Part shown: positions 34,956 through 49,651 of the stretch, piece by piece
How positions within the stretch are numbered: position 1 is the stretch's first letter
Layout: the number at the start of each line of letters is the position of its first letter
Source: an uncultured bacterium
Lineage (GTDB): Bacteria; Omnitrophota; Gorgyraeia; Duberdicusellales; CBEUCJ01
DNA: 64,000 nucleotides
Assembly: GCA_965541615.1 (NCBI GenBank)
Contig: CBEUCJ010000004.1
Span: 21,167-85,166, forward strand
Direction of reading: 5' to 3'
Position numbers and translations under genes: made by a program
Notes under the pieces: model-generated
What the model saw: the letters and a program-made list of their open reading frames with translations, nothing else
Databases searched by the model: none
What the model was told of the DNA's origin: nothing

Positions 34956-35150
34956 TATGCAAGAAAGCACGATGCAATAATAAATAATAAATTGAAATGA
35001 AGATTAGAAGTTTAGTTGATGAATGTTATTTAGCAGAGACAGAATTGAAGGGTTCTTGATTGTTGAAAGAATGATAAGCTAGGAGGATAGTGGCACTTCT
35101 TTTGAAAGAGATGGATGTAAGGTTTATTGTAGAAGATTTATTAATCGTGT
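34956..35150 (+). pseudogene. Decayed ~190-nt duplicate of the 5' end (including ATG) of the CrtI-like gene at 36613
   Basis: By-eye alignment to 36612-36775 about 75-85% identical; frame contains stops (MQESTMQ*). Confidence 0.6.
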
Positions 35151-35170
35151 AAGACAAAAATAATTTGCTT

Positions 35171-38052: not shown

Positions 38053-40206
38053 ATGATGAGTCTAAATTTATTTAGTATTTCTTCTTTTCTAATTTTCATT
38101 TTTAGTATTTCTTTGGGTATTTTTACTTTTTTAAAGAATAGAGAAAGAATAGGAAAAATATGGATTTCTTTTTGTTTTCTTGCTTCTATTTGGGGGTTTG
38201 GGGGATACAAGTTCTCTACGGTTTCTAACTACGACGATGCTTTTTTTTGGTGGCAGGTTGCATATATATGTGTAATTCTCTCTCCTGTGGTGTACACTCA
38301 TTTTGTATTTGTTTTTCTTGAAATAAAGAAGAAGTTTTTTTTGTGTTGTTTTTATATCTTAGCAGGAATATTTTTAGGACTTAATTTTTTTGCTCCTAAA
38401 CTTTTCTTAGGAGATTTAAGGTTCATATTTAATCAATTTTGGTGGCATGATTGGGTTAAGAGAAAAAATGTAGTATGGTTAATTTTTTATTTTTGTTTTT
38501 ACTGGTATCTTTTGGTATATTGCTTTTTTCTATTGATAAAATATTATAAGAGAACTTCTGGTGTAAAAAAGTTTCAGTTAAAATATTTTATATTAGCTTC
38601 AGTTTTTGGGTGGATAGGTCCAATTGTAGATTATCTTCCCGTTTTTCGGATCGATATTTATCCTTATGCTAATTTTTTAACAATTCTTTATCCCTTTCTT
38701 ATTACGTATGCCGTTGTCAAGTATCGTCTTATGGACATTCGCATTACGATTACTCAAACAGGCATTTTTGGTTTAGTTTATGCTTTGATATTGGCTATCC
38801 CTTTTGCAATAACTTTCTGGGGAAGAGGACATTTATATCCTTATTTTGGAGAATTCTGGTGGGTGCCTTCATTTATACTTTTAGCAGTTTTAGCTTCTAC
38901 AGGTCCTTTTATTTATATGTATTTACAAAAGAAAGCAACAGATTTTTTATTAAGAGAAGAGAGGAAGTATCAAGAGGCGCTTTTGGCTTTGGCAAAAGAA
39001 ATGGTGAATGAGAAAGATTTAGATAGATTATTGAGGATTATAGTTTTAAGAGTTTACAGATTAATGAAGTTAAAATTTACAGGAGTCTATTTATGTGAAA
39101 AAGAAGATAGTTTTGCTGTTTTGAAATATAAATGGCCTAAAAAAGAAAATCCATTGCCCCAAAGACTTCACTTACACACATCTTCTCTAATAAAAGCTAT
39201 TAAGGAAAAGAAATCTCCTTTTGGTTTAGATGAAGCAGAAGTCGATAAAGAATCAGAAGGTTTACCTGATTACGGAGCAATAATTCCTTCTTTTATGGAT
39301 GATACCTTAATTGGTTTTTTATTTTTAGGTCCTAAAAAGAAAGGAGATTTTTCGCCAAGAGACTATGAAGTATTTGAGACTTTAAGTTTACAAGCAGCTT
39401 TAGCTATTGAGAATGCTTTATATTTAGAAGAGTACAAAAAGACTCAAGAAGCTTTGTTTCAAGCTGAAAAATTAGCAAATATAGGTGTGATGGCTTCAGG
39501 GATGAGTCATCAGATGAATAACAGATTGCAGGTCATAAGTCTAATAGCAGGAGATATAAAAGATGAGATAAATTTCTTAAAGGAAACCGACCCTGAAACT
39601 CTAAAAACTTTCATTGCTCATGTAAAAGAAAATATGGAAAGATTAGAAGAAGAGATAAAGCATGGAAGAGAAGTGATAAGAGGTCTTTTAGATTATTCAA
39701 AGAAAAGACAGATAAGGTTTATGCTTGTAAATTTTGAAAAGGACATCTTGCAAGATGCTTTAAAACTTTTGTATACCAAGCAAAAAATAGAAGATGCAGA
39801 ACTCAACTTTGAGATTCAAAAAGATTTACCTTCTATTTGGGCAGAACCTACTCAGATGGCAGAAGTCGTGTTTAACTTATTAGACAACGCTTACGAAGCT
39901 GTAATTATGAAAAAGAATCATCTAAATGATTCAAATTTTAAAGGGAGAATAACATTGAAAGCCTACAGTATAAATGAATTTTTTAGAATAGATGTAGAGG
40001 ACAATGGAATAGGAATTAAAGAAGAAGATAAAAAGAAAATTTTTATCCCCTTTTTCACAACAAAATCTTCTACAAAATCAGGTTTTGGATTAGGTATGTA
40101 TGTAGTAAAGAGGATAATAGAATCTCATAAAGGTAAAATCTGGTTTGAATCTAAATATTTAGAAGGAACCAAATTCCATATAGAACTCCCCTTACCTCAA
40201 TTTTAA
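38053..40206 (+). CDS. Sensor histidine kinase with large multi-TM N-terminal sensor, no adjacent response regulator
   Basis: About 10 TM helices, then HisKA (SHQMNNRL) and HATPase_c (DNGIGI…GFGLGM) motifs. Confidence 0.75.
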   Translation: MMSLNLFSISSFLIFIFSISLGIFTFLKNRERIGKIWISFCFLASIWGFGGYKFSTVSNYDDAFFWWQVAYICVILSPVVYTHFVFVFLEIKKKFFLCCFYILAGIFLGLNFFAPKLFLGDLRFIFNQFWWHDWVKRKNVVWLIFYFCFYWYLLVYCFFLLIKYYKRTSGVKKFQLKYFILASVFGWIGPIVDYLPVFRIDIYPYANFLTILYPFLITYAVVKYRLMDIRITITQTGIFGLVYALILAIPFAITFWGRGHLYPYFGEFWWVPSFILLAVLASTGPFIYMYLQKKATDFLLREERKYQEALLALAKEMVNEKDLDRLLRIIVLRVYRLMKLKFTGVYLCEKEDSFAVLKYKWPKKENPLPQRLHLHTSSLIKAIKEKKSPFGLDEAEVDKESEGLPDYGAIIPSFMDDTLIGFLFLGPKKKGDFSPRDYEVFETLSLQAALAIENALYLEEYKKTQEALFQAEKLANIGVMASGMSHQMNNRLQVISLIAGDIKDEINFLKETDPETLKTFIAHVKENMERLEEEIKHGREVIRGLLDYSKKRQIRFMLVNFEKDILQDALKLLYTKQKIEDAELNFEIQKDLPSIWAEPTQMAEVVFNLLDNAYEAVIMKKNHLNDSNFKGRITLKAYSINEFFRIDVEDNGIGIKEEDKKKIFIPFFTTKSSTKSGFGLGMYVVKRIIESHKGKIWFESKYLEGTKFHIELPLPQF

Positions 40207-40470
40207 ATAAATTAGCTTTCTTAAAATAAACTTTTTAATACATGTAACACCTAATGCCATTTATTCAGCACTAAACTTTGGGGTTAGAAGATAATGTAAT
40301 AATTTTTTAGATATTAAAAATGGGGCATTTTATAAGGACTCTTTTTGTTTCAATACTTTTGTTAGAAAATAAAGAATATTTGCTTTTTGTATAATGATAT
40401 GTGATAATTTATTGATTTTAGAAAAAAGAAAAAAAATATTTTGAGAGTTATTTAAAATTTGCAAGATTAA

Positions 40471-40737
40471 TTAAGAAAAAAAGCCAATCACATTTTTGGA
40501 GAGGTTAAAGTATTAGTTTTTGGCTCAGTTGTAAAAGGAGACTATCTTTCAAATAGGGATATAGACATTTTAATCATAACTGAAAATTTGCCTCAAGAAT
40601 TTTTTGAGCAAGTTAAATTAAAACAAAAATTATTAGAAGGTTTAGAAGAGAATCCTTTCCAGATACATCTTGCTGCTCCTCAAATGTATCAAAGATGGTA
40701 TAAGAATTTTATAAAAGATAATTATTTAGAAGTTTAA
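40471..40737 (+). pseudogene. N-terminally truncated nucleotidyltransferase (MNT) paralogue of the gene at 41139; no start codon in frame
   Basis: …VLVFGSVVKGDY…DIDILIITENLP…FQIHLAAP…, about 55% aa identity to 41139 product; frame opens right after a TAA. Confidence 0.5.
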
Positions 40738-40747
40738 GAGGTGTCAA

Positions 40748-41142
40748 ATGGACATTGGATTCTTGAAAGAGAGAGCAAATGAATTTTTTGAAGAAGCGCA
40801 AGAATTATTAAAGAAAAAGAAGTATAATCTTTCAGTTTTCAATTTAGAGCAAGCAATTCAATTATGGATAAAATACTTGATTGGCAAGAAAATAGGAGAT
40901 TGGCCTAAGACGCATTTTTTTCAGAATTAATTCCTCAATTAGCTCAGGTTTATGAGGAAGAAAAGATTTTAGAATTTTATAAAGAAAATGAACTATTTTT
41001 TGATAGTTTAGAAGATGCTCATTTTACTTCTCGGTATTTTCCAAAAAAATTCACTGAAAATGTTATATTAAAACTTTTTGAATATTCTAAAAAATTTTTT
41101 AAATTGATTAAAGAGACTATTAATGAAGATTTTTCCCTATGA
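40748..41142 (+). pseudogene. HEPN-domain gene with -1 frameshift in a T7 run (about 40912-40918)
   Basis: Two consecutive ORF pieces; T8 would give …KTHFFSELIPQLAQV… continuing to HFTSRYFP HEPN motif. Confidence 0.55.
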
Positions 41143-41495
41143 AGAAAAGTCTGGTCGATATAATTTTACCTATACATAAAAAAAAGGAGATGTACTTTAG
41201 GAATTATAAGTCTTATTGTCAAGAAATTAAAAGAATAGCAAAATGTTCTTTGAAAGAAGTAAGAGTGTTAGTGTTTGGTTCAGTGGTAAAAGATAAACAT
41301 ACTCCAAGTAGTGATATCGATGTTTTAATAATTTCTAATAACCTTCCTGAAGAATTTGAAGAGAGAGAAAAGATCAAGACAAATATTAAGTCAAAAATAG
41401 ACCCCTTTTCTCCATTTCAGCTCCATTTAGCCACACCTAAGGAATTTAAAGAATGGTATGAAAACTTTTTGAAAGGTAATTATCTAGAAATATAA
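41139..41495 (+). CDS. Minimal nucleotidyltransferase (MNT)
   Basis: VLVFGSVVKDKHTPSSDIDVLII NTase motif. Confidence 0.7.
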   Translation: MKKSLVDIILPIHKKKEMYFRNYKSYCQEIKRIAKCSLKEVRVLVFGSVVKDKHTPSSDIDVLIISNNLPEEFEEREKIKTNIKSKIDPFSPFQLHLATPKEFKEWYENFLKGNYLEI

Positions 41496-41546
41496 TTTTT
41501 TTAAAAAAATTTCAACTTGACAAAATACAGATTATAGTATATATTT

Positions 41547-41565
41547 GAAAATGAAAATCATTATC
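41547..41565 (+). promoter_or_regulatory. Fur box upstream of fur (17/19 match to GATAATGATAATCATTATC)
   Basis: GAAAATGAAAATCATTATC, 16 nt upstream of fur ATG; overlaps likely -10 region. Confidence 0.6.
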
Positions 41566-41580
41566 AATAAGGAGTGATCA

Positions 41581-42069
41581 ATGCCACACAGAAGGCATAG
41601 AAAAGGAATGATGTGGTGGCATATGAGGTTTATAGATGCAGGTTTTAGAATGACTTTGCCAAGACAAGCAATTATGGAGGTTTTAAGTAACACTACAGAG
41701 CATTTGAGTGCTGAAGAAATATACCTTAAAGTGCGCAAAAGATATCCTGGAATAGGACTTACAACTGTGTACAGAACTTTAGATATTCTAGTTAACATGG
41801 GACTCATATCTAAATTTGATTTTGGAGATGGCAGAGCACGTTATGAATTATCAGAGACTTCAAAGGGTGCAAAACCTCATCATCATCATTTGGTATGTAG
41901 AGAGTGTGGGAAAATAATAGATTATACAGAGTTTATAGATGATGAAGTAGAATTAATTAACAACATTCAGAAAAAACTTTCAGAAAAATATAACTTTAAG
42001 ATAACAAATCACATTATTCAATTTTATGGATTGTGTGATAAATGTCAGCAGAAGAATAAAGTAACGTAA
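41581..42069 (+). CDS. fur: Ferric uptake regulator family transcriptional regulator (Fur/Zur/PerR)
   Basis: Winged-helix N-terminus; HHHHLVCRECG and CDKC metal sites. Confidence 0.8.
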   Translation: MPHRRHRKGMMWWHMRFIDAGFRMTLPRQAIMEVLSNTTEHLSAEEIYLKVRKRYPGIGLTTVYRTLDILVNMGLISKFDFGDGRARYELSETSKGAKPHHHHLVCRECGKIIDYTEFIDDEVELINNIQKKLSEKYNFKITNHIIQFYGLCDKCQQKNKVT

Positions 42070-42088: not shown

Positions 42089-42107
42089 GAAAATGATTAT
42101 CATTATT
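42089..42107 (+). promoter_or_regulatory. Second Fur-box-like site (16/19) immediately upstream of the aromatic small-protein operon
   Basis: GAAAATGATTATCATTATT, 21 nt upstream of ATG 42128. Confidence 0.5.
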
Positions 42108-42127: not shown

Positions 42128-42355
42128 ATGAGAGGAAGAAATTTTTGGGGACCAGGATTTTGGAAATTTGGGTATTTAGGATATCCTTATTATCCAAGCT
42201 ATTTTGGATTTCCTTTTTTCTGGGGTAGAGGAAGAGGGAATCCATTTCCTTTTTGTAGATGGTTTCCATTTTTACCTCGTGGATGGTGGGCGATGCCATT
42301 CTTTTTAAGTATGTGGCAAAATATTTATCCATATCAAGGAGGAACTACAAAATGA
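42128..42355 (+). CDS. Small W/F/Y/P/G-rich protein 1 (75 aa; no coiled-coil tail)
   Basis: RBS GGGGGTG; about 45% aromatic+Pro+Gly; ORF-track start 42119 (GTG) replaced by ATG 42128. Confidence 0.55.
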   Translation: MRGRNFWGPGFWKFGYLGYPYYPSYFGFPFFWGRGRGNPFPFCRWFPFLPRGWWAMPFFLSMWQNIYPYQGGTTK

Positions 42356-42519
42356 TTTTTAGAGAAAGCTTTTTAAAATTTATTGATTCTAAATCTTTGC
42401 ATAATGATTCTGCTTACTTTGCTATACATTGGCCCTATTTTTGGAATAGGACTCTTATAGGAAAGAATGTTCAAAAAAAGAAAGAAGGAATAAAAGAAAA
42501 AGTTAAAAAAAGGAGGTGA
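42352..42519 (+). CDS. Small ORF (55 aa) with strong RBS, aromatic/basic
   Basis: GGAGG 8 nt upstream of ATG 42352; fills gap between neighbours. Confidence 0.35.
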   Translation: MIFRESFLKFIDSKSLHNDSAYFAIHWPYFWNRTLIGKNVQKKKEGIKEKVKKRR

Positions 42520-42755
42520 TAGTTATGCCTTTCGGAATGGGACCAGCTGGTTGGTTTTTAGCACCATACATTTATCCTCAGATTTTAAATTTTTATCAAA
42601 ATTTTCTAAGAATGTGGGGTTATCCATTTTATGGATTCTCAATGCCCTTTTATGGAGGTGATGAATTAAGTTACTTAAAACAATTAAAGCAGAATTTAGA
42701 ACTTCAGTTACAAGACATTGAAAGAAGGATTAAAGAATTAGAATCTACTACTTAA
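42516..42755 (+). CDS. Small W/F/Y/P/G-rich protein 2 with C-terminal coiled-coil (…LELQLQDIERRIKELEST)
   Basis: RBS GGAGGTGA; MPFGMGPAGWF… N-terminus; heptad-like C-terminus. Confidence 0.65.
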   Translation: MIVMPFGMGPAGWFLAPYIYPQILNFYQNFLRMWGYPFYGFSMPFYGGDELSYLKQLKQNLELQLQDIERRIKELESTT

Positions 42756-42777
42756 TAAAATAAGGAGGTGAGGGGAT

Positions 42778-43080
42778 ATGAGAGGTTATAGACATAGAAA
42801 TATGTATTATTTAACAGGATTACCTGGTTGGATGAGATTTGGATTTAGTCCTGGGTGGGGAGGTTTACCTCCTGGAGCTCAATATATGTTTACAGGAAAT
42901 TGGCCTACTCTGCAGGCAAATTCTTTATGGTCAAATATTTCTCAAAATGCAACATTTGATCCTTATAAAGTCTCTCAGATTAGTAAAGAGCAAGAGTTGC
43001 AGCTTTTAAAGCAACAGGCAGAAGCTTTAAAAGCTCAGCTTGAAAGAATAGAAAAAAGAGTTCAAGAGTTAGAGTCTTAA
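42778..43080 (+). CDS. Small W/F/Y/P/G-rich protein 3 with C-terminal coiled-coil (…LKAQLERIEKRVQELES)
   Basis: RBS GGAGGTGA; paralogue of the preceding two genes. Confidence 0.65.
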   Translation: MRGYRHRNMYYLTGLPGWMRFGFSPGWGGLPPGAQYMFTGNWPTLQANSLWSNISQNATFDPYKVSQISKEQELQLLKQQAEALKAQLERIEKRVQELES

Positions 43081-43115: not shown

Positions 43116-43634
43116 ATGAAAATTTGCGTAACAGCTCAAGGAAATACTTTAGAATCTTTGGTAGATCCCAGATTTGGAAGAGCTCAATATTTTATAATTT
43201 ATGATACTGAGACTGATTCTTTTGAAAGTATCTTAAATCCAAATTTAAATCTATTTTCAGGAGCAGGAATTCAAAGTGCACAACTTATAGTACAAAAAGG
43301 AGTTCAAGTTTTAATTACAGGAAACGTGGGACCCAATGCTTTTAATGTATTAACAGCTGCTGGAATAAATATAATAACAGGTATAATGGGAGTATCAGTA
43401 AAGGAAGCTATAGAAAGATTTAAGAGAGGAGAGTTGAATTTTACTTTTTCTCCAACAGTCTCTAAACACTTTGGAGCTCAAATGTATCCACCAAACTTTG
43501 GGACGATGCCATATCAATTTCAAACTTCTAAAGCACAAGAACTTAATATGTTAAAACAACAACTTCAATTTTTAAAACAGCAGATCGAGATGATAAACCA
43601 GAGAATAAAGGAGTTAGAAAAAAATGAGCAATAA
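43116..43634 (+). CDS. NifB/NifX-fold protein ('dinitrogenase FeMo-cofactor-binding' domain) with a C-terminal aromatic+coiled-coil extension homologous to the preceding small proteins
   Basis: …DPRFGRAQYFIIYD…ITGNVGPNAF…; tail GAQMYPPNFGTMPYQF…LKQQLQFLKQQIEMINQRIKELE. Confidence 0.65.
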   Translation: MKICVTAQGNTLESLVDPRFGRAQYFIIYDTETDSFESILNPNLNLFSGAGIQSAQLIVQKGVQVLITGNVGPNAFNVLTAAGINIITGIMGVSVKEAIERFKRGELNFTFSPTVSKHFGAQMYPPNFGTMPYQFQTSKAQELNMLKQQLQFLKQQIEMINQRIKELEKNEQ

Positions 43635-43914
43635 AGCTACAGTCCTTAAAGAAATTTGTAGAGGATGTGGACTTTGTGCTTTTAGTTGTCCTCAGAATGC
43701 TATAACTATCATCTTTGGAAAAGCTGAAGTAGATAAATCTAAGTGTATAGGATGCAGAAGATGCATCCAAGTATGTCCTGTAAAAGCTATTGTAATCACT
43801 CCTTCTGTAAATAAAGAAGAAGTAGAGATTTTTAAAAAACAGGTTAGAAGATTAAAGGAGAGAATAACGACTGTTAACAGAAAGATAAAAGATTTATTAG
43901 AAAAAAGGAGGTGA
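43624..43914 (+). CDS. 2x[4Fe-4S] ferredoxin with C-terminal basic coiled-coil tail
   Basis: CRGCGLCAFSCP and CIGCRRCIQVCP; tail …RRLKERITTVNRKIKDLLEKRR. Confidence 0.75.
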   Translation: MSNKATVLKEICRGCGLCAFSCPQNAITIIFGKAEVDKSKCIGCRRCIQVCPVKAIVITPSVNKEEVEIFKKQVRRLKERITTVNRKIKDLLEKRR

Positions 43915-43917
43915 TTT

Positions 43918-44625
43918 TTGAAAGTAGCTATAGCTGTAGATAAAGGTAAAGTTTCAGCTCATTTTGGAAGATGTGAAGAGTTTGTCTTATTAGAAATAGA
44001 AGATTCAAAAGTAATCAGTAAAAAAATGATTAAAAATCCAGGACATAAACCTGGATTTCTACCTCAATTTTTAAAGGAGCTAAAAGTAGATGTAATAATC
44101 ACAGGAGGGATGGGTAAAAAAGCTTTAGAATTGTTTGAGAAAGCGCAAATAAAAGTTATTTTGGGGATCACAGGAGAAGTTGAAGACGTAATAAATGAGT
44201 TTTTGAAAGGTAATTTAAAAAGTAAGGAAAGTTTATGTACACGAGATACATTTAAAGAAACTGAAGTTAAGTATTATAAAGAAAAAGGTAGTAAGATTTG
44301 TATTACTTCTAAAGGAGATAGTTTAGATTCAGAGTTAGATCCTAATTTTGGAAGGTGCAACTATTTTATCATTTTTGATTTAGAGAGTTCAGATTACGAA
44401 GCTATAGAAAACCCTTATAAAGATTTACCTCAAGGAGCAGGGATAAGGAGCGCTCAATTTGTTATAGAAAAAAATGTAGATACTCTTTTAACAGGAGAAG
44501 TAGGTCCTCATGCTCAGGAAGTTTTACAGAAAGGCGGGGTTAATTTAATAAAAAGAATTTCAGGAAGAGTAAGAGAAGTAATTGAAGCGTTTAAAAAAGG
44601 AGGACCTAATTATGTGGGGCAATAG
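43918..44625 (+). CDS. Tandem NifB/NifX-fold domain protein (two 'FeMo-cofactor-binding'-like domains)
   Basis: Two repeats of …FGR(C)..F…D…ITGG/TGEVGP… pattern; TTG start with RBS GGAGGTGA. Confidence 0.6.
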   Translation: MKVAIAVDKGKVSAHFGRCEEFVLLEIEDSKVISKKMIKNPGHKPGFLPQFLKELKVDVIITGGMGKKALELFEKAQIKVILGITGEVEDVINEFLKGNLKSKESLCTRDTFKETEVKYYKEKGSKICITSKGDSLDSELDPNFGRCNYFIIFDLESSDYEAIENPYKDLPQGAGIRSAQFVIEKNVDTLLTGEVGPHAQEVLQKGGVNLIKRISGRVREVIEAFKKGGPNYVGQ

Positions 44626-44800
44626 AGAAGAAGATATCAATAGAATTCAGAGAGGACAAGGAAGGATGGGTAGAAGAGGTTTAGGTCCTGGAGGATTTTG
44701 TAAATGCTTAAGATGTGGCACAAGAATTCCTCATCAAAGAGGAACCCCTTGTTATACTTTAACTTGTCCTAACTGTGGGGCAAGGATGGTTAGAGAATAA
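44612..44800 (+). CDS. Small Gly/Arg-rich zinc-ribbon protein (CxC…CG…CPNCG)
   Basis: GRMGRRGLGPGGFCKCLRCG…CPNCG; ORF-track start 44582 would overlap upstream gene, ATG 44612 preferred. Confidence 0.5.
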   Translation: MWGNREEDINRIQRGQGRMGRRGLGPGGFCKCLRCGTRIPHQRGTPCYTLTCPNCGARMVRE

Positions 44801-44821
44801 TTTTGAAGTTTTTTGAAAAAA

Positions 44822-45673
44822 ATGAAAATATCTGTTGCCAGTGGAAAAGGAGGAGTAGGCAAAACCACAGTAGCTGTAGCTTTAGCAGATGTTTTGGTTT
44901 CATCAAAAAATGTGAATGTTTTGTTCTTAGATTGTGATGTAGAAGAACCAAATTCTTATTTTTTTATAAAACCTCAAATAACCCAAAAAATTCCAATCTA
45001 TACTCAGATTCCTCAGGTAGATAAAAATAAGTGTAATTTTTGTGCAAAATGTAGTAAAATTTGTGCTTATAATGCTATAGCAGTGGTGAAAACAGAGGTC
45101 TTAATATTTGATAATCTTTGTCATGGATGTGGAGCTTGTAGTTTTTTTTGTCCTCAAAAAGCAATAAAAGAAGTGAACAAAGAAATAGGATTTATTGAAA
45201 TAGGAGAAAAAGAAAATTTAAAATTTATTCATGGCAAATTGAAAATAGGACAAGCAATACCTACACCTTTAATTAAAGCTGTAAAAAGCTATATAAATGG
45301 TTTTGATTTTACTATAATAGATGCTCCTCCAGGAGCAAACTGTAGTGTAGTAGAATCTGTTAAGAACACAGATTTTTGTATTGTAGTTACAGAGCCTACC
45401 CCTTTTGGTTTAAGTGATATGATTCAGTTGACGCAGCTTTTAAAAAGGCTTGGTATTAAATTTGGAGTGATTATAAATAAAGAGAATTTAGGAGATGAAA
45501 GAGTTGAAAAGTTTTGCAAAGAAAATGATATTCCTATTCTACTAAAGATTCCTTTTCTGAGAGAAGTGAGTTTTCAAAGTGCAAAAGGTCAAATTTTAAC
45601 AAAAATCCTACCTGAGTATAAAAGAGAGTTTGACAAAGTTATAGAAAGAATTAAAGTTCTAAACTCAAATTAG
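44822..45673 (+). CDS. MinD/ParA-superfamily P-loop ATPase with inserted 2x[4Fe-4S] ferredoxin domain
   Basis: SGKGGVGKTT; CNFCAKCSKIC and CHGCGACSFFCP. Confidence 0.8.
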   Translation: MKISVASGKGGVGKTTVAVALADVLVSSKNVNVLFLDCDVEEPNSYFFIKPQITQKIPIYTQIPQVDKNKCNFCAKCSKICAYNAIAVVKTEVLIFDNLCHGCGACSFFCPQKAIKEVNKEIGFIEIGEKENLKFIHGKLKIGQAIPTPLIKAVKSYINGFDFTIIDAPPGANCSVVESVKNTDFCIVVTEPTPFGLSDMIQLTQLLKRLGIKFGVIINKENLGDERVEKFCKENDIPILLKIPFLREVSFQSAKGQILTKILPEYKREFDKVIERIKVLNSN

Positions 45674-45687
45674 GAGGGGGGTAGAGT

Positions 45688-47034
45688 ATGTTTATTAATA
45701 CTGATATTCTAATAATTGGCGCAGGTCCTGCTGGAATAGTAACAGCAACTACTGCACGTAAATACTATCCTGAGAAGAAAATTTTGATAGTAAAAAATGT
45801 AGAAAGAGGAGTAATCCCTTGTGGAATTCCTTACATGTTTTATAGTTTAAAGAATCCTGAGGAAAATGAGTTAAAGATTACTCCTTTAGAAAAGAAAAAT
45901 ATTCAGGTAATTATAGATGAAGTAGTAAACATAGATAGAATTCAGAAGATAGCCTATACAAAGAATGGAGATATGATAAATTATGAGAAATTAATAATGG
46001 CAACAGGCTCTCTTCCTCAAAGTTTGCCTATTCCTGGAATAGAGAAAGAAGGAGTTTATTTGATTTATAAAGATATGGAATATCTCAGAAAAGTGGTAGA
46101 AAAAGTAAAGAATTCAAAGAATGTCTTAATAATAGGAGGAGGGTTCATTGGATGTGAAGTGGCAGATGAGATTTCCAAAATAGAAGGAGTAAATGTGTAT
46201 TTAGTAGAAGTTTTACCTAATTTGTTAGCAAATTCTTTTGATCCTGAATTTTCTAAAATCGTAGAAGAAAAGTTAGTTTCAGAAGGTGTCAAGGTCTTAA
46301 CTAATACTAAAGTAGTAGAGATTATAGGTAAAGAAAAGGTCGAAGAAGTCCTGTTATCTGATGGAAGAAAAATAAAAGTAGATGTGGTGATTTTAGGGAT
46401 AGGTTCTGTTCCTAATACAGAGTTAGCTCAAAAAATAGGTTTAGAGATAGGTAAAAGAAAGGGGATAAGAGTAGATGAATACATGAGGACTTCAGATCCA
46501 AACATATTTGCAGTCGGAGACTGTGCAGAAAAAAGAGATTTTTTTACACGTAAACCTGTTCAAGTAATGTTAGCTTCTACTGCTACAGCTGAAAGCAGAA
46601 TCTGTGGAGCAAATATTTATAAATTAAAAGTAATCCGTGAAAATAAAGGTACAATCGCTATCTATTCAACATTTATAAATGGAGTAGTTTTAGGTTCTGC
46701 AGGTTTAACTGAAAAAACTGCAAATTTAGAAGGATTTGAGATTATAACAGGCATTGCAGAAGCTCCAGACAAACACCCTAAAACTTTACCTTCAGCAAAC
46801 AAAATAAAAGTAAAGCTTATTTTCTCAAAACATTCAGGGATTATTTTAGGAGGACAGGTTGCAGGAGGCATGAGTTGTGGAGAGTTAATAAATTTAATAG
46901 GTGTAGCTATTCAAAAAAGAATGTCTTTTACAGAATTAGAGACTTTACAGATGGCTACACACCCTTATTTAACACCAGCACCTACAATGTATCCTGTAGT
47001 TTTAGCTGCTCAAGATGCAGCGAATAAGATTTAG
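45688..47034 (+). CDS. Pyridine nucleotide-disulfide oxidoreductase of the CoA-disulfide reductase / NADH oxidase (single-Cys) family
   Basis: IIGAGPAG FAD motif, redox PCGIPY Cys, IIGGGFIGCE NAD motif. Confidence 0.75.
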   Translation: MFINTDILIIGAGPAGIVTATTARKYYPEKKILIVKNVERGVIPCGIPYMFYSLKNPEENELKITPLEKKNIQVIIDEVVNIDRIQKIAYTKNGDMINYEKLIMATGSLPQSLPIPGIEKEGVYLIYKDMEYLRKVVEKVKNSKNVLIIGGGFIGCEVADEISKIEGVNVYLVEVLPNLLANSFDPEFSKIVEEKLVSEGVKVLTNTKVVEIIGKEKVEEVLLSDGRKIKVDVVILGIGSVPNTELAQKIGLEIGKRKGIRVDEYMRTSDPNIFAVGDCAEKRDFFTRKPVQVMLASTATAESRICGANIYKLKVIRENKGTIAIYSTFINGVVLGSAGLTEKTANLEGFEIITGIAEAPDKHPKTLPSANKIKVKLIFSKHSGIILGGQVAGGMSCGELINLIGVAIQKRMSFTELETLQMATHPYLTPAPTMYPVVLAAQDAANKI

Positions 47035-47040
47035 AGAGAG

Positions 47041-47916
47041 ATGAATCCAAAAGAGTTAGTTATAATTAGTGGAAAAGGTGGCACAGGTAAAACTACTCTT
47101 GCTTTGGGTTTAGTTTCCATTTTTAAAAATATAGTAATTGCAGATTGTGATGTAGATACTCCTGATTTACATTTGGTATTAAAGCCTTATAAGACAGAAG
47201 AAAAAGGAATATTCAAAGAGAGGTTTACAGCTTTCATAAATAAAGACAGATGTATAGAATGCGGAAAGTGTAGACAAGTTTGTAGATTTGAAGCTATAAG
47301 CAAAGATTTAGTGGTGAACTCTTTAGAATGTCAGGGTTGTAGATTTTGTGAATTAGTGTGTCCTCAAAAAGCAATAGAGATGAGAGAAGAGATTACAGGA
47401 AACTGGCAGATTTCTCAAACAAGATTTGGTCCTTTTGTTTGGGCTCAACTTACTAATTTAGGTGAGAATTCAGGAAAATTGGTAAGTTTAATAAGAGAGA
47501 AGGCAAGAAATCTTGCTAAAAAAATAGGTTCAGAATTAGTCATCATAGATGGTTCACCAGGTATTGGATGTCCAGTAATAGCTTCTATAACTGGTGCAAA
47601 TTTTTGCGTAGTAGTCACAGAGCCTAGCTTATCAGCTTTACATGATGCTGAGAGAGTTATAAGACTTACTGAACATTTTAGAATAAAAGCGGGTTTAGTG
47701 ATAAATAAATACGATTTAAATCCAGAGTTAACTCAAAAGATCCAAGATTGGGCTCAAAAAGAAGAGGTTGCTATTTTAGGAAAAATAAAGTTTAAAGAGT
47801 CAGTAATAAAAGCTATGTTGGAGTTAAAAACCGTAATAGAATTTCCAGATCAAGAAATAAAATCTACTTTTTACGAGATTGCATCTAAAATAAAAGAAAG
47901 ATTAGAAGCTAGTTAA
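47041..47916 (+). CDS. Second MinD-type ATPase with inserted 2x[4Fe-4S] ferredoxin domain
   Basis: SGKGGTGKTT; CIECGKCRQVC and CQGCRFCELVCP. Confidence 0.8.
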   Translation: MNPKELVIISGKGGTGKTTLALGLVSIFKNIVIADCDVDTPDLHLVLKPYKTEEKGIFKERFTAFINKDRCIECGKCRQVCRFEAISKDLVVNSLECQGCRFCELVCPQKAIEMREEITGNWQISQTRFGPFVWAQLTNLGENSGKLVSLIREKARNLAKKIGSELVIIDGSPGIGCPVIASITGANFCVVVTEPSLSALHDAERVIRLTEHFRIKAGLVINKYDLNPELTQKIQDWAQKEEVAILGKIKFKESVIKAMLELKTVIEFPDQEIKSTFYEIASKIKERLEAS

Positions 47917-47930
47917 TTGGAATAATTATT

Positions 47931-48755
47931 ATGCAAGGAGTAGATAATTTTTCCCAAATAAAAATGCAGATAAAAGAAAATCTTTCTCAAGTAAAATATA
48001 AATTACTTATTATCAGTGGAAAAGGAGGGGTAGGCAAAACCACAGTAGCTGTAAATTTAGGATATAGTTTAGCTGTTAAAAAATATAAAGTTGGAATATT
48101 AGATGTAGATATTCATGGTCCAAATGTGCCTAAAATGTTAGGGATAGAAAATCAAAGACTTACAGCCTCTGAAAGTGGAAGAATAGAACCCGTTCAGGTT
48201 TTACCTAACTTAAAAGTAGTGAGTTTAGCTTTAGTAGGTGAGGATCCTGAAAAACCAGTCATATGGCGAGGACCTTTAAAAACAGCAGTAATTAGACAGT
48301 TTTTAGCTGAAAGTAATTGGCAAGATTTAGATTTCTTAATTGTAGACTCTCCTCCTGGAACAGGAGATGAACCTTTAAGTGTTTGTCAATTGATCTGTGA
48401 GTTAGATGGAGCAATAGTAGTAGCTACTCCTCAAGAAGTAGCTCTTTTAGATGTTAAAAAGAGTATTTTATTTGCTAAAGAGTTAGGTGTCCCAATAATT
48501 GGAATAGTTGAGAATATGAGTTTCTTTATATGTCCTCATTGCCAAAAAAAGATAGATTTACTCACAACACAAAAAATTGAAGAAATTATTCAAAAGACTG
48601 GTATTCAGATTTTAGGAAGACTTCCTTTTGATATTGATGTGTTAAGATTTCAAGATAGAGGAAGACCTTTTGTTTATTTTAATAAAGATTCAGAAGCAGC
48701 CAAAATTATGGATAGAATTACAGATAAAATTGTAGATTTTTTAGTAAAAAAATGA
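47931..48755 (+). CDS. Mrp/ApbC/NBP35-family Fe-S cluster carrier ATPase
   Basis: SGKGGVGKTT plus C-terminal CPHC motif. Confidence 0.8.
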   Translation: MQGVDNFSQIKMQIKENLSQVKYKLLIISGKGGVGKTTVAVNLGYSLAVKKYKVGILDVDIHGPNVPKMLGIENQRLTASESGRIEPVQVLPNLKVVSLALVGEDPEKPVIWRGPLKTAVIRQFLAESNWQDLDFLIVDSPPGTGDEPLSVCQLICELDGAIVVATPQEVALLDVKKSILFAKELGVPIIGIVENMSFFICPHCQKKIDLLTTQKIEEIIQKTGIQILGRLPFDIDVLRFQDRGRPFVYFNKDSEAAKIMDRITDKIVDFLVKK

Positions 48756-49651
48756 GAACGTATTTAGATTGTATTCCTTGTTTTTTTAAGCAAGCATTAG
48801 AAGCTTCAAGGATTTCTGGAGCGAGCAGAATAACACAAAAAAAAGTGTTAGATGAATTAGCAAAAATTTTGCCTAAGTTTTCTTTAAACACACCTCCTCC
48901 TTTGATGGGTAGAGTTATTTATAAATTGGTTAGTAAACTTACTAAAAATTTAGATCCTTATCGTGAGATAAAAATAAAAAGTAATGAATTAGCTTTAAAT
49001 ATTTATCCAAAGTTAAAGAGAAAAGTAGCACTTTCAAAAGATAGATTAAAAAAAGCTATAGAGTTAGCTATTGCAGCAAATTCTATAGATTATGGAGTAA
49101 GAAACTCTTTGAATATAGAAGAAGAATTAAAAAGAATTTTAAGAGAAGAAGAAAAGACTATTAAAGTGGAAAATAAAAGATTTTTTGAGTATGAGGAATT
49201 TAAAAAAGCTTTAAATAAAGCAAAGACTATTCTTTATTTAGGTGATAATGCAGGAGAGGTGGTTTTTGATAGAGTTTTGATTGAAGAGATTAAAAAAATA
49301 GATAAGAATAAAAAAATAATTTATGCAGTAAAATCTAAACCTATTATAAATGATGCTTTAGTTGAAGATGCTTTACAAGCAGGCATTCATAAAGTAGCTG
49401 AGATAATCCTTTCAGGAGTAGATGCTCCAGGCACTATTCTTTCTTTATGTTCAAAAGAATTTTTAAAAGTTTATAAAAATGCAGATCTAATAATCAGTAA
49501 AGGACAAGGAAACTTTGAAGCTTTATCAGACAAAAAGCATCCAATATTCTATTTGTTTATGGCAAAGTGTAAAACTGTGGCCAACCACTTAGGATGTAAA
49601 CTTAGAGATATAATTCTGTTTCATAATTTAAATAATAAAGTGTTAAAATAA
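48752..49651 (+). CDS. DUF89 (ARMT1-like damage-control phosphatase) family protein
   Basis: N-terminal DCIPCFF motif and overall DUF89-like sequence. Confidence 0.55.
   Translation: MRTYLDCIPCFFKQALEASRISGASRITQKKVLDELAKILPKFSLNTPPPLMGRVIYKLVSKLTKNLDPYREIKIKSNELALNIYPKLKRKVALSKDRLKKAIELAIAANSIDYGVRNSLNIEEELKRILREEEKTIKVENKRFFEYEEFKKALNKAKTILYLGDNAGEVVFDRVLIEEIKKIDKNKKIIYAVKSKPIINDALVEDALQAGIHKVAEIILSGVDAPGTILSLCSKEFLKVYKNADLIISKGQGNFEALSDKKHPIFYLFMAKCKTVANHLGCKLRDIILFHNLNNKVLK

Follow-up and report, generated by a model that had tools for sequence, protein, structure and literature searches.

Among the closest described systems are IssA and the ORP ('orange protein') complex. IssA (PF2025) of Pyrococcus furiosus is a NifX-domain protein with an unstructured tail of 70 amino acids (aa); the tail consists of 16% Pro, 10% cationic, 20% aromatic and 21% Gly residues with one Cys, has an isoelectric point (pI) of 10.7, and was proposed to wrap anionic thioferrate in particles of up to 300 nm; such wrapping, according to the same authors, requires no precise positioning (PMC5524996). 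For Desulfovibrio, the ORP complex and its iron–sulfur (Fe-S) transfer have been described (PMC6345978). Proteins of family DUF5320 (PF17253, IPR035205) are common in anaerobes beside ORP/IssA-type genes; in the literature search they were found merely mentioned in lists, with no discussion of function. The present analysis concerns four small genes, g1, g1b, g2 and g3, at positions 42128–43080 of a 64-kb stretch of DNA from an uncultured bacterium of the Omnitrophota (contig CBEUCJ010000004.1, positions 21,167 to 85,166); this whole stretch is called the window.

The products of the four genes are read here, at a probability of roughly 40%, as modular 'tail' accessory subunits of a Fur-controlled, ORP-like Fe-S cluster system. 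The support comprises a shared helix, gene fusions, synteny, composition and Fur boxes. The locus displays the building blocks of DUF5320 as separate genes, namely a zipper helix shared with a NifX protein, three invariant, acid-free motifs predicted to be disordered, and an invariant Cys; it ties these genes to Fur and yields a concrete, testable hypothesis for the assembly of ORP-like and IssA-like systems. Even if the model is wrong, the analysis yields a correct annotation of four small genes, a motif family not described before and, in Omnitrophota, a probable member of the Fur regulon.

Small genes at 42128–43080

The + strand bears nearly all genes of the window (30% G+C), including the following four.

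Gene g1: 42128–42355, + strand; 75 aa, 36% of them aromatic and none acidic; helix absent; core GRGNPFPFCRWFPFLPRGWW, in which Cys43, Trp53 and Trp54 are invariant.
Gene g1b: 42352–42519, + strand; 55 aa; conserved segment ESFLK..DS..NDS.YFAIHW.YFW; Lys-rich tail.
Gene g2: 42525–42755, + strand; 76 aa; invariant N-terminus MPFGMGPAGW, aromatic/Pro spacer, DUF5320-type leucine-zipper helix (residues ~46–76).
Gene g3: 42778–43080, + strand; DUF5320 protein of 100 aa; invariant YYLTGLPGWMRFGFSPGW motif and C-terminal zipper helix (residues 70–99).

Three genes of 75, 79 and 100 aa had been listed in the original prediction, which was made from the letters of the window alone. The positions of these open reading frames (ORFs) stand; the number of genes is four, g1b having been overlooked, and g2 is shorter. 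The ATG of g1b overlaps the stop codon of g1 (ATGA), an AGGAGG of its own lies 8 nt upstream, and the gene occupies the 160-nt "gap" that had been left between g1 and g2. Gene callers independently predicted it in four related contigs (as 55 or 52 aa); it occurs in the related loci L004, L005 and L086–L089 and is absent from L001–L003; its product is 67% identical to the L086 copy and gave no match in Pfam, the sole family collection checked for it. A g2 product of 79 aa is obtained only from GTG 42516; since the ribosome-binding site AGGAGGTGA overlaps this codon and all of the orthologues (13/13) begin at the invariant MPFGMGPAGW, the start of g2 was set at ATG 42525 (76 aa). Every one of these ORFs is preceded by a strong Shine-Dalgarno site. 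A search of the region against Rfam, including the 160-nt stretch now assigned to g1b, gave no RNA family; a terminator-like hairpin within g1 is at chance level.

Coding status and composition

The small genes are real and under purifying selection. With L086 (NCBI GCA_053996315.1), a ~85%-identical relative, as reference, the ratio of non-synonymous to synonymous substitution rates (dN/dS) was: g1 0.16, g1b 0.32, g2 0.06, g3 0.09; flanking genes: fur 0.14, NifX gene 0.18. The G+C content at third codon positions (GC3) was 0.21–0.22, as in the adjoining genes; at second positions it was 0.55 in g1 vs ~0.30 in the adjoining genes. The L088 contig has an identical arrangement at 99.1% identity over 12.3 kb, synteny of the small genes was found at 85 loci, and the named close homologues belong to Candidatus Omnitrophota/Omnitrophica. 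An origin as spurious ORFs in a compositionally odd non-coding spacer has a negligible probability: the dN/dS range of 0.06–0.32 is comparable to that of the flanking fur and NifX genes, GC3 is gene-typical, a Shine-Dalgarno site belongs to each ORF, and orthologues occur in many contigs, with g1 and g3 represented in both bacteria and archaea. Strong ribosome-binding sites had been taken at the outset as a sign of real genes, and conservation and GC3 had been set beforehand as checks; the ORFs proved to be conserved in relatives and GC3 to be gene-like.

W+F+Y+P+G make up 73% (g1), 62% (g2) and 53% (g3) of the first 45 residues, an enrichment stronger than the 40–50% claimed earlier; in the background of 14,021 windows of 45 residues from 56 other proteins of the 64-kb window, the mean was 20% and the maximum 46.7%. 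Trp reaches 9% in g1 vs 0.7% in the background. Neither Asp nor Glu occurs anywhere in g1 or ahead of the helix in g2 and g3, 180 residues in total (D+E background 11.6%; P ~2e-10). There is one Cys in g1 and none in g2 and g3, which agrees with the description 'almost no Cys', although the invariance of the single residue had escaped notice. As had been stated, neither a transmembrane segment (g1–g3; highest 19-residue Kyte-Doolittle score 0.77) nor a signal peptide was found in the small proteins.

That the aromatic richness stems from low genomic G+C alone was considered and rejected; the two are weakly correlated (rho = −0.48), ferredoxin fusions confound the relation, and aromatic-rich members occur also at 57–62% G+C, so that G+C gives a partial explanation only.

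Families of g3, g2 and g1

Protein g3: The score against PF17253 was 26.7 bits (Pfam cut-off 27); P0009, which is 99% identical to g3, and many homologues carry the precomputed PF17253.8 assignment. The search gave 339 homologues (~50% identity, 95–100% coverage) spanning Caldiserica, KSB1, Chloroflexi, Deltaproteobacteria, Thermoplasmatales, Methanophagales, Halobacteriota and Syntropharchaeia; several are named 'DUF5320 domain-containing protein', among them sequences from Caldiserica, Chloroflexi, Halobacteriota and Syntropharchaeia. Invariant residues over 119 bacterial/archaeal sequences: T13, G14, P16, G17, W18, R20, F21, G22, S24, P25, P32, L77. Judged by these matches, g3 is a standard DUF5320 protein over its full length and adds a member to this known but uncharacterised family. 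The resemblance to DUF5320 proposed earlier is borne out in full by g3 and through the helix by g2.

Protein g2: Twelve clusters were found among 5.8 billion sequences, all of them from Omnitrophica where named. Alignment of the g2 family with the g3 family by hhalign (97.4% probability, E = 9e-12, 40 columns) covered the helix only, and before residue 34 of g2 nothing was aligned to the g3 family. Against PF17253 g2 scored 16.9 bits at model positions 48–99 only, the N-terminal region of the model being unmatched. On sequence grounds g2 is classed as a lineage-restricted relative whose common ground with DUF5320 is the C-terminal helix only; its N-terminal half, lineage-restricted as it is, sets it apart from that family.

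Protein g1: No match to PF17253 at E ≤ 1 was obtained, nor any hit in Pfam or NCBIfam, nor a hit of the helix hidden Markov model (HMM) introduced below; unlike DUF5320, g1 is defined by a separate Cys/Trp core. A word-indexed search gave 8 clusters and a full HMM scan of 1.84 billion representatives 41 clusters; two long hits among these (769 and 1116 aa) were discarded as false positives caused by repeats. The family signature is GNP(Y/F)PFCRxFPWLPRxWW with invariant C43, W53 and W54; the most conserved residue of the family is the single Cys (Cys43). By hhalign the g1 and g3 families are linked at 99.1%, so that g1 is connected to DUF5320 at the family level only.

The copies of Pfam and NCBIfam that were searched contain no entry covering the g1 Cys/Trp core or the GRG zinc-ribbon protein encoded downstream. 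The g1 core motif family is rare and had not been described; g2 and, above all, g1 represent new variants.

Solved structures compared with the g1 and g3 profiles gave only generic coiled coils (E > 0.01). AlphaFold2 (AF2) gave no confident structure for g1 (mean predicted local distance difference test score, pLDDT, 49.9); for g3, helix 70–99 was predicted at pLDDT 76–90 and the motif region 8–28 at below 50. In g1 throughout, as in the invariant motif of g3, pLDDT stayed under 50–60. Motifs that are invariant yet modelled as unfolded alone carry the signature of a motif folding on a partner.

Shared helix and recombined motifs

The gene that follows g3 encodes a NifX-domain protein ending in the same helix.

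Gene NifX-cc: 43116–43634, + strand; NifX domain of ORP/MTH1175/IssA type (PF02579, 87 bits), aromatic/Pro linker, DUF5320 helix.

An HMM was built from the helix segment of the g3 family and run on all six-frame ORFs of the window; three ORFs only were matched: g3 (2e-15), NifX-cc (1e-12) and g2 (3e-8). Within the last ~30 residues of these three proteins, the d positions of four heptads are occupied by L/L/I/L, and the a positions are mostly hydrophobic. NifX-cc itself scores 27.5 bits against PF17253, over the cut-off. A coiled coil at the C-terminus of two of the three proteins, as originally described, is thus represented by the helix of g2 and g3. The DUF5320 helix stands at the end of 29 of 43 distinct NifX proteins adjoining g1-type genes; the linker before it (35–80 residues) is essentially acid-free, with GMGRG repeats or Pro/Tyr repeats, and some helix-less NifX relatives terminate in GMGRG repeats.

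The same motifs are arranged differently in relatives. A single chain unites the g3 motif YYxTGxPGW with the g1 core and the helix in P0008, P0132, P0134, P0138, P0159, P0161 and P0167; in P0143 and P0149 the chain consists of the g2 N-terminus MPFGMGPxG together with the g1 core and the helix; in further relatives a GRG-repeat N-terminus is joined to the g1 core, with or without the helix. By the helix HMM, 20 of 42 g1-family members contain the helix. Because relatives recombine the same short motifs in single chains, g1, g2 and g3 of the window are one modular family split over separate polypeptides, not simple paralogues. Of the paralogy proposed earlier there remains the C-terminal helix of 30–40 residues common to g2 and g3, which share nothing else; g1 is linked to them only via the motif-combining relatives.

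The spacer before the g1 core ranges from Gly/Arg-rich (GRG repeats) to aromatic-rich (r = −0.56), the g1 of the window standing at the aromatic extreme. The earlier proposal that Gly/Arg is replaced here by aromatic residues is therefore partly right: it describes this gradient within the g1 family.

A ferredoxin domain of the 2×[4Fe-4S] type and the g1 core form a single uninterrupted ORF in six loci.

Ferredoxin–g1 core ORFs: L030, 1532–1894; L035, 1163–1579; L037, 481–849; L043, 1224–1625; L051, 1127–1522; L081, 3644–4027.

The junction (KGGD.MRGR) contains an embedded perfect AAGGAGGTGA-N5-ATG, in L043 at 1415–1433. Because a perfect Shine-Dalgarno sequence and an ATG thus lie inside the junction, both the fusion and the free peptide may be produced.

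The g1 core (CRWFPFLPRGWW) is Trp-, Arg- and Pro-rich, and we presume a resemblance to the Trp/Pro/Arg antimicrobial peptides tritrpticin and indolicidin. Through this core the small proteins could be membrane-interface anchors or secreted or modified Trp/Arg/Pro-rich peptides; a radical SAM gene in one Chloroflexi locus and the ArsP_2 permease gene downstream would suit such a role, which is nevertheless very unlikely. The proteins are without signal peptide or transmembrane segment; no maturase, peptidase or exporter gene is present in the window operon or in most related loci; the motif is found joined to ferredoxin domains, which are cytoplasmic, as well as to the DUF5320 helix; and the Fe-S gene context is tight in two domains of life. 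A modified-peptide precursor, a secreted peptide, a lipoprotein and a Tat signal were ruled out as candidates by gene context and sequence.

Gene neighbourhood

The cluster continues downstream of NifX-cc with the following genes.

Ferredoxin: 43624–43914, + strand; 2×[4Fe-4S], basic helical tail.
Double NifX-domain protein: 43918–44625, + strand; related to the C-terminal domain of MrpORP.
Zinc-ribbon protein: 44612–44800, + strand; 62 aa, GRG-rich N-terminus, four Cys.
MinD/ParA-type ATPase 1: 44813–45673, + strand; CbiA/ParA and Fer4 domains; inserted 2×[4Fe-4S] motifs, Orp3/Orp4-like.
Pyridine-nucleotide disulfide oxidoreductase: 45688–47034, + strand; group of NADH oxidase, CoA-disulfide reductase and CoA-persulfide reductase.
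MinD/ParA-type ATPase 2: 47041–47916, + strand; CbiA/ParA and Fer4 domains; 2×[4Fe-4S] motifs.
Mrp/NBP35 ATPase: 47931–48755, + strand; PF10609, 305 bits; matches the P-loop part of MrpORP.
ARMT1-like (DUF89) protein: 48752–49651, + strand; frequent cluster member.

An ArsP_2 permease gene lies further downstream of the ARMT1-like gene. In a comparison with the PDB, NifX-cc matched best 2WFB (Desulfovibrio ORP; 1.4e-23), then TM1290 and MTH1175 (1EO1). Mrp scored 341 bits against NF041136 (MrpORP) at model positions 1–250 of 365 (cut-off 450). MrpORP is apparently split, the P-loop gene (47931–48755) and the Di-Nase/NifX gene (43918–44625), both matching NF041136, being ~3.3 kb apart. Because NifX-cc matches 2WFB and the Mrp and double NifX-domain proteins match parts of MrpORP, the window cluster is classed, from its sequences, as an ORP-like Fe-S system with a split MrpORP.

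Features shared with the ORP complex of Desulfovibrio are two MinD-like 2×[4Fe-4S] ATPases (Orp3/Orp4) at 44813–45673 and 47041–47916, an ORP-type NifX protein (Orp8), here NifX-cc, and an Mrp/NBP35 protein matching MrpORP, all in a single cluster. The differences are the distribution of the two domains of MrpORP (P-loop and Di-Nase) over separate genes, the presence of fur and Fur boxes instead of a promoter of sigma-54/OrpR type, and the small DUF5320-type, zinc-ribbon, oxidoreductase and ARMT1-like proteins, which are outside the five described members. The usual neighbours of DUF5320 (NifX-domain proteins, MinD-ferredoxin ATPases, Mrp) are all present at the window locus. The neighbourhood that the original prediction had given for DUF5320 proteins (NifB-domain and MinD genes) was indeed seen, as NifX/NifB-domain and MinD-type genes, in the window and in contigs of Omnitrophota, KSB1, Chloroflexi and ANME-1. 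What that prediction had missed was the control by Fur, the invariance of the Cys, g1b and the presence of the helix on the NifX protein as well.

Neighbours were counted at 80 metagenome loci carrying the g1 core, the denominators being the loci with enough sequence. Downstream of the core were found: a NifX domain, 28/36 loci within 2 kb and 39/49 within 3 kb; a MinD/Mrp ATPase, 22/36 within 8 kb; the zinc-ribbon protein, 21/36 within 8 kb. At an ANME-1 archaeon locus Mrp, NifX-cc, a g1-core protein, the zinc-ribbon protein and g3 stand in a row. In Chloroflexi and KSB1 contigs DUF5320, NifX-DUF5320 and ferredoxin are combined with the ATPases, or with Fur and ArsP_2.

The position of the ATPases bears on whether the small proteins could be adaptors like McdB, ParB or MinE, in which a basic disordered N-terminus stimulates a MinD/ParA ATPase and a coiled coil oligomerises; by analogy, they would link the MinD-ferredoxin/Mrp ATPases to a cargo (NifX, ferredoxin or a particle). 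Such a role is rather unlikely. Three ATPases of the ParA/MinD family with deviant Walker A motifs (GKGGVGKT, GKGGTGKT) are encoded in the operon; the extreme N-termini M(P)RGRNF.G.GFW and MRGYRHRN are conserved and basic; small size, a basic disordered N-terminus, a coiled coil and genes beside ParA/MinD ATPases agree with McdB, a condensate former (PMC10554743); and MrpORP is polar in Desulfovibrio, the ORP complex being linked to cell division (PMC6345978). McdB, however, is unrelated in sequence, NifX (28/36 loci) is a more constant neighbour than an ATPase (22/36), the helix is fused to NifX and not to the ATPases, the N-terminus of g2 contains a single basic residue, and the KSB1 locus L092 has DUF5320, g1-core, NifX-cc, ferredoxin and Fur genes with no ATPase within 5 kb.

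The same locus (L092 2645–10330) has an activator of the PAS/sigma-54 type with OrpR-like architecture that adjoins a g3-type DUF5320 gene and two Band_7 genes; it also contains a g1-core-plus-helix protein, NifX-DUF5320, ferredoxin, Fur and ArsP_2, without a MinD/Mrp ATPase within 5 kb.

The zinc-ribbon protein (pattern C.C..CG...PH..G.PC....CP.CG..M.R, 62–63 aa) occurs in 29 of 85 loci, from Omnitrophota through to an ANME-1 archaeon, for example in L090 (1544–1732) and L001 (9936–10127). The longest ORF at this place starts at TTG 44582 (72 aa) and overlaps the preceding gene; the orthologues favour ATG 44612. The flavoprotein at 45688–47034 stands between the two MinD-ferredoxin genes, likewise in L086 and L088, and might serve for sulfide supply or thiol reduction for the system.

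Fur boxes

The classical Fur-box core consensus is AATGAT-N-ATCATT. The 64-kb window contains only two matches to this core, and they flank fur.

Promoter-like site and Fur-box-like AATGAAAATCATT: 41517–41562, + strand; TTGACA-17-TATATT at 41517–41545, box at 41550–41562.
Gene fur: 41581–42069, + strand; Fur-family metalloregulator, 162 aa (PF01475, 123 bits).
Fur-box core: 42092–42104, + strand; perfect 6-1-6 AATGAT-T-ATCATT between fur and g1.

Scores of the fur product against NCBIfam were 140 bits (Fur), 101 (PerR) and 44 (Zur), every one of them under the equivalog cut-off. The gene stands directly upstream of g1 in 16 related loci. The box at 41550–41562 has one mismatch and lies 19 nt before fur, immediately following the region's best promoter-like site. 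A box upstream of fur (~30 bp before the gene) is kept in L001–L003, L007, L010, L012, L016, L022, L086 and L088, and the box between fur and g1 is kept at the equivalent place in L004/L005, L012, L016, L086 and L088; in loci with fur upstream of g1, 18 of 19 box matches fall at the one position or the other. No sigma-54 promoter (TGGCAC-N5-TTGCW, ≤2 mismatches) was matched upstream of either fur or g1. Because the two boxes recur at the same positions in relatives and no sigma-54 match was obtained, iron-responsive control of the operon through the putative Fur boxes is likely.

Over the whole window 26 sigma-54-like matches (≤2 mismatches) were counted vs 13.9 expected; the best of them (35091–35106, + strand, one mismatch) lies 59 nt upstream of a gene starting at 35165.

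Proposed iron-sulfide binding and its alternatives

For the reading as tail subunits the following mechanism is proposed. The zipper helices of g2, g3 and NifX-cc would associate with one another, and the acid-free Arg/aromatic/Gly/Pro segments, disordered alone, would thereby be gathered around the NifX domain. Together with the Cys motif of g1, the segments would bind or stabilise anionic iron-sulfide species on the NifX domain, for which the cis tail of IssA serves as the model; what is bound could be a cluster or its precursor, or else a polymer resembling thioferrate. Loading or unloading of clusters would fall to Mrp and the two MinD-ferredoxin ATPases, and iron availability would set expression via Fur.

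The composition of g1 falls into the same classes as that of the IssA tail: 13% Pro, 11% R+K, 36% aromatic, 16% Gly; one invariant Cys; pI 10.3; no acid. The profile of the tail (cationic with pI of at least 9, aromatic/Gly-rich, few Cys) fits g1. In both systems a NifX domain of the MTH1175/ORP group (IPR003731) is accompanied by cationic aromatic/Gly/Pro segments and there is a link to iron status; the linkers of the window-type NifX proteins (GMGRG or Pro/Tyr repeats, acid-free) are of the same character. The systems differ in that g1–g3 are without a NifX domain, which is encoded in the next gene (43116–43634), and in that each tail-like segment is either a polypeptide of its own or attached to the domain by a zipper, a helix of this kind not having been reported for IssA.

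Several results weigh against the proposal. The parallel with IssA is one of composition only, taken from published values for the tail. In the published definition of the IssA clade (Vaccaro et al.), at least 20% of the last 40 residues are Gly; NifX-cc ends in a helix, and its last 40 residues are Gly-free. No g1 core fused to NifX was found among the 1.84 billion representatives, and the tail of the window ferredoxin gave no match to the helix HMM. The strict positional conservation of the motifs suits protein docking equally well. In the classical model, finally, a promoter overlapped by Fur boxes is expected to be switched on when iron is short; for IssA, induction occurs solely with sufficient iron (PMC5524996). 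Because Fur predicts low-iron induction whereas IssA needs sufficient iron, trafficking or salvage is favoured over storage.

The original prediction had offered a condensate or scaffold driven by composition, in which π–π and cation–π contacts of the aromatic/Arg N-termini would act and coiled coils would give valency. The extreme aromatic/Arg/Gly/Pro composition, the lack of acidic residues, the absence of a fold in the AF2 predictions of the N-terminal parts and the particles of up to 300 nm formed by IssA with its similar tail (PMC5524996) agree with this explanation, which is held to be quite improbable since conservation is position-specific (12 invariant positions over 119 sequences in g3, C..FPWLPR.WW in g1, MPFGxGPAGW in g2) and the variable spacers are Gly/Arg-rich or aromatic, so that aromaticity itself is not conserved. 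Conservation of this kind points to specific binding motifs, and a scaffold role would survive solely by analogy with the IssA tail (PMC5524996).

The tail-subunit reading may be extended to DUF5320 and g1-core proteins in general, which would then act in trans as tails of a particle that stores or buffers iron-sulfide and is widespread among anaerobic bacteria and archaea. The tails would zip onto NifX proteins of ORP/IssA type and either template a thioferrate-like polymer or cap it; they would also connect the particle with ATPases of MinD/Mrp type, by which it would be loaded or positioned. DUF5320, IssA and the ORP cluster would all belong to a single system controlled by Fur. This extension is considered unlikely. 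If it is true that the motifs hold iron-sulfide species, this would show by what means iron and sulfide are stored or trafficked in anaerobes without ferritin.

Region upstream of fur

In L088 (2054–3770) two HEPN/nucleotidyltransferase pairs, toxin–antitoxin-like, lie upstream of fur. In the corresponding region of the window (40211–41495) ~430 bp are missing (40211–40414), and the HEPN ORF at 40748–40930 has 60 aa vs 131 aa in L088; the difference could be due to decay or to assembly.

A histidine kinase with a seven-transmembrane receptor part is encoded upstream of the fur operon in the window (38053–40206, + strand) and in L086 (6653–8797); the domains of the L086 orthologue are HisKA_7TM, GAF and HATPase.

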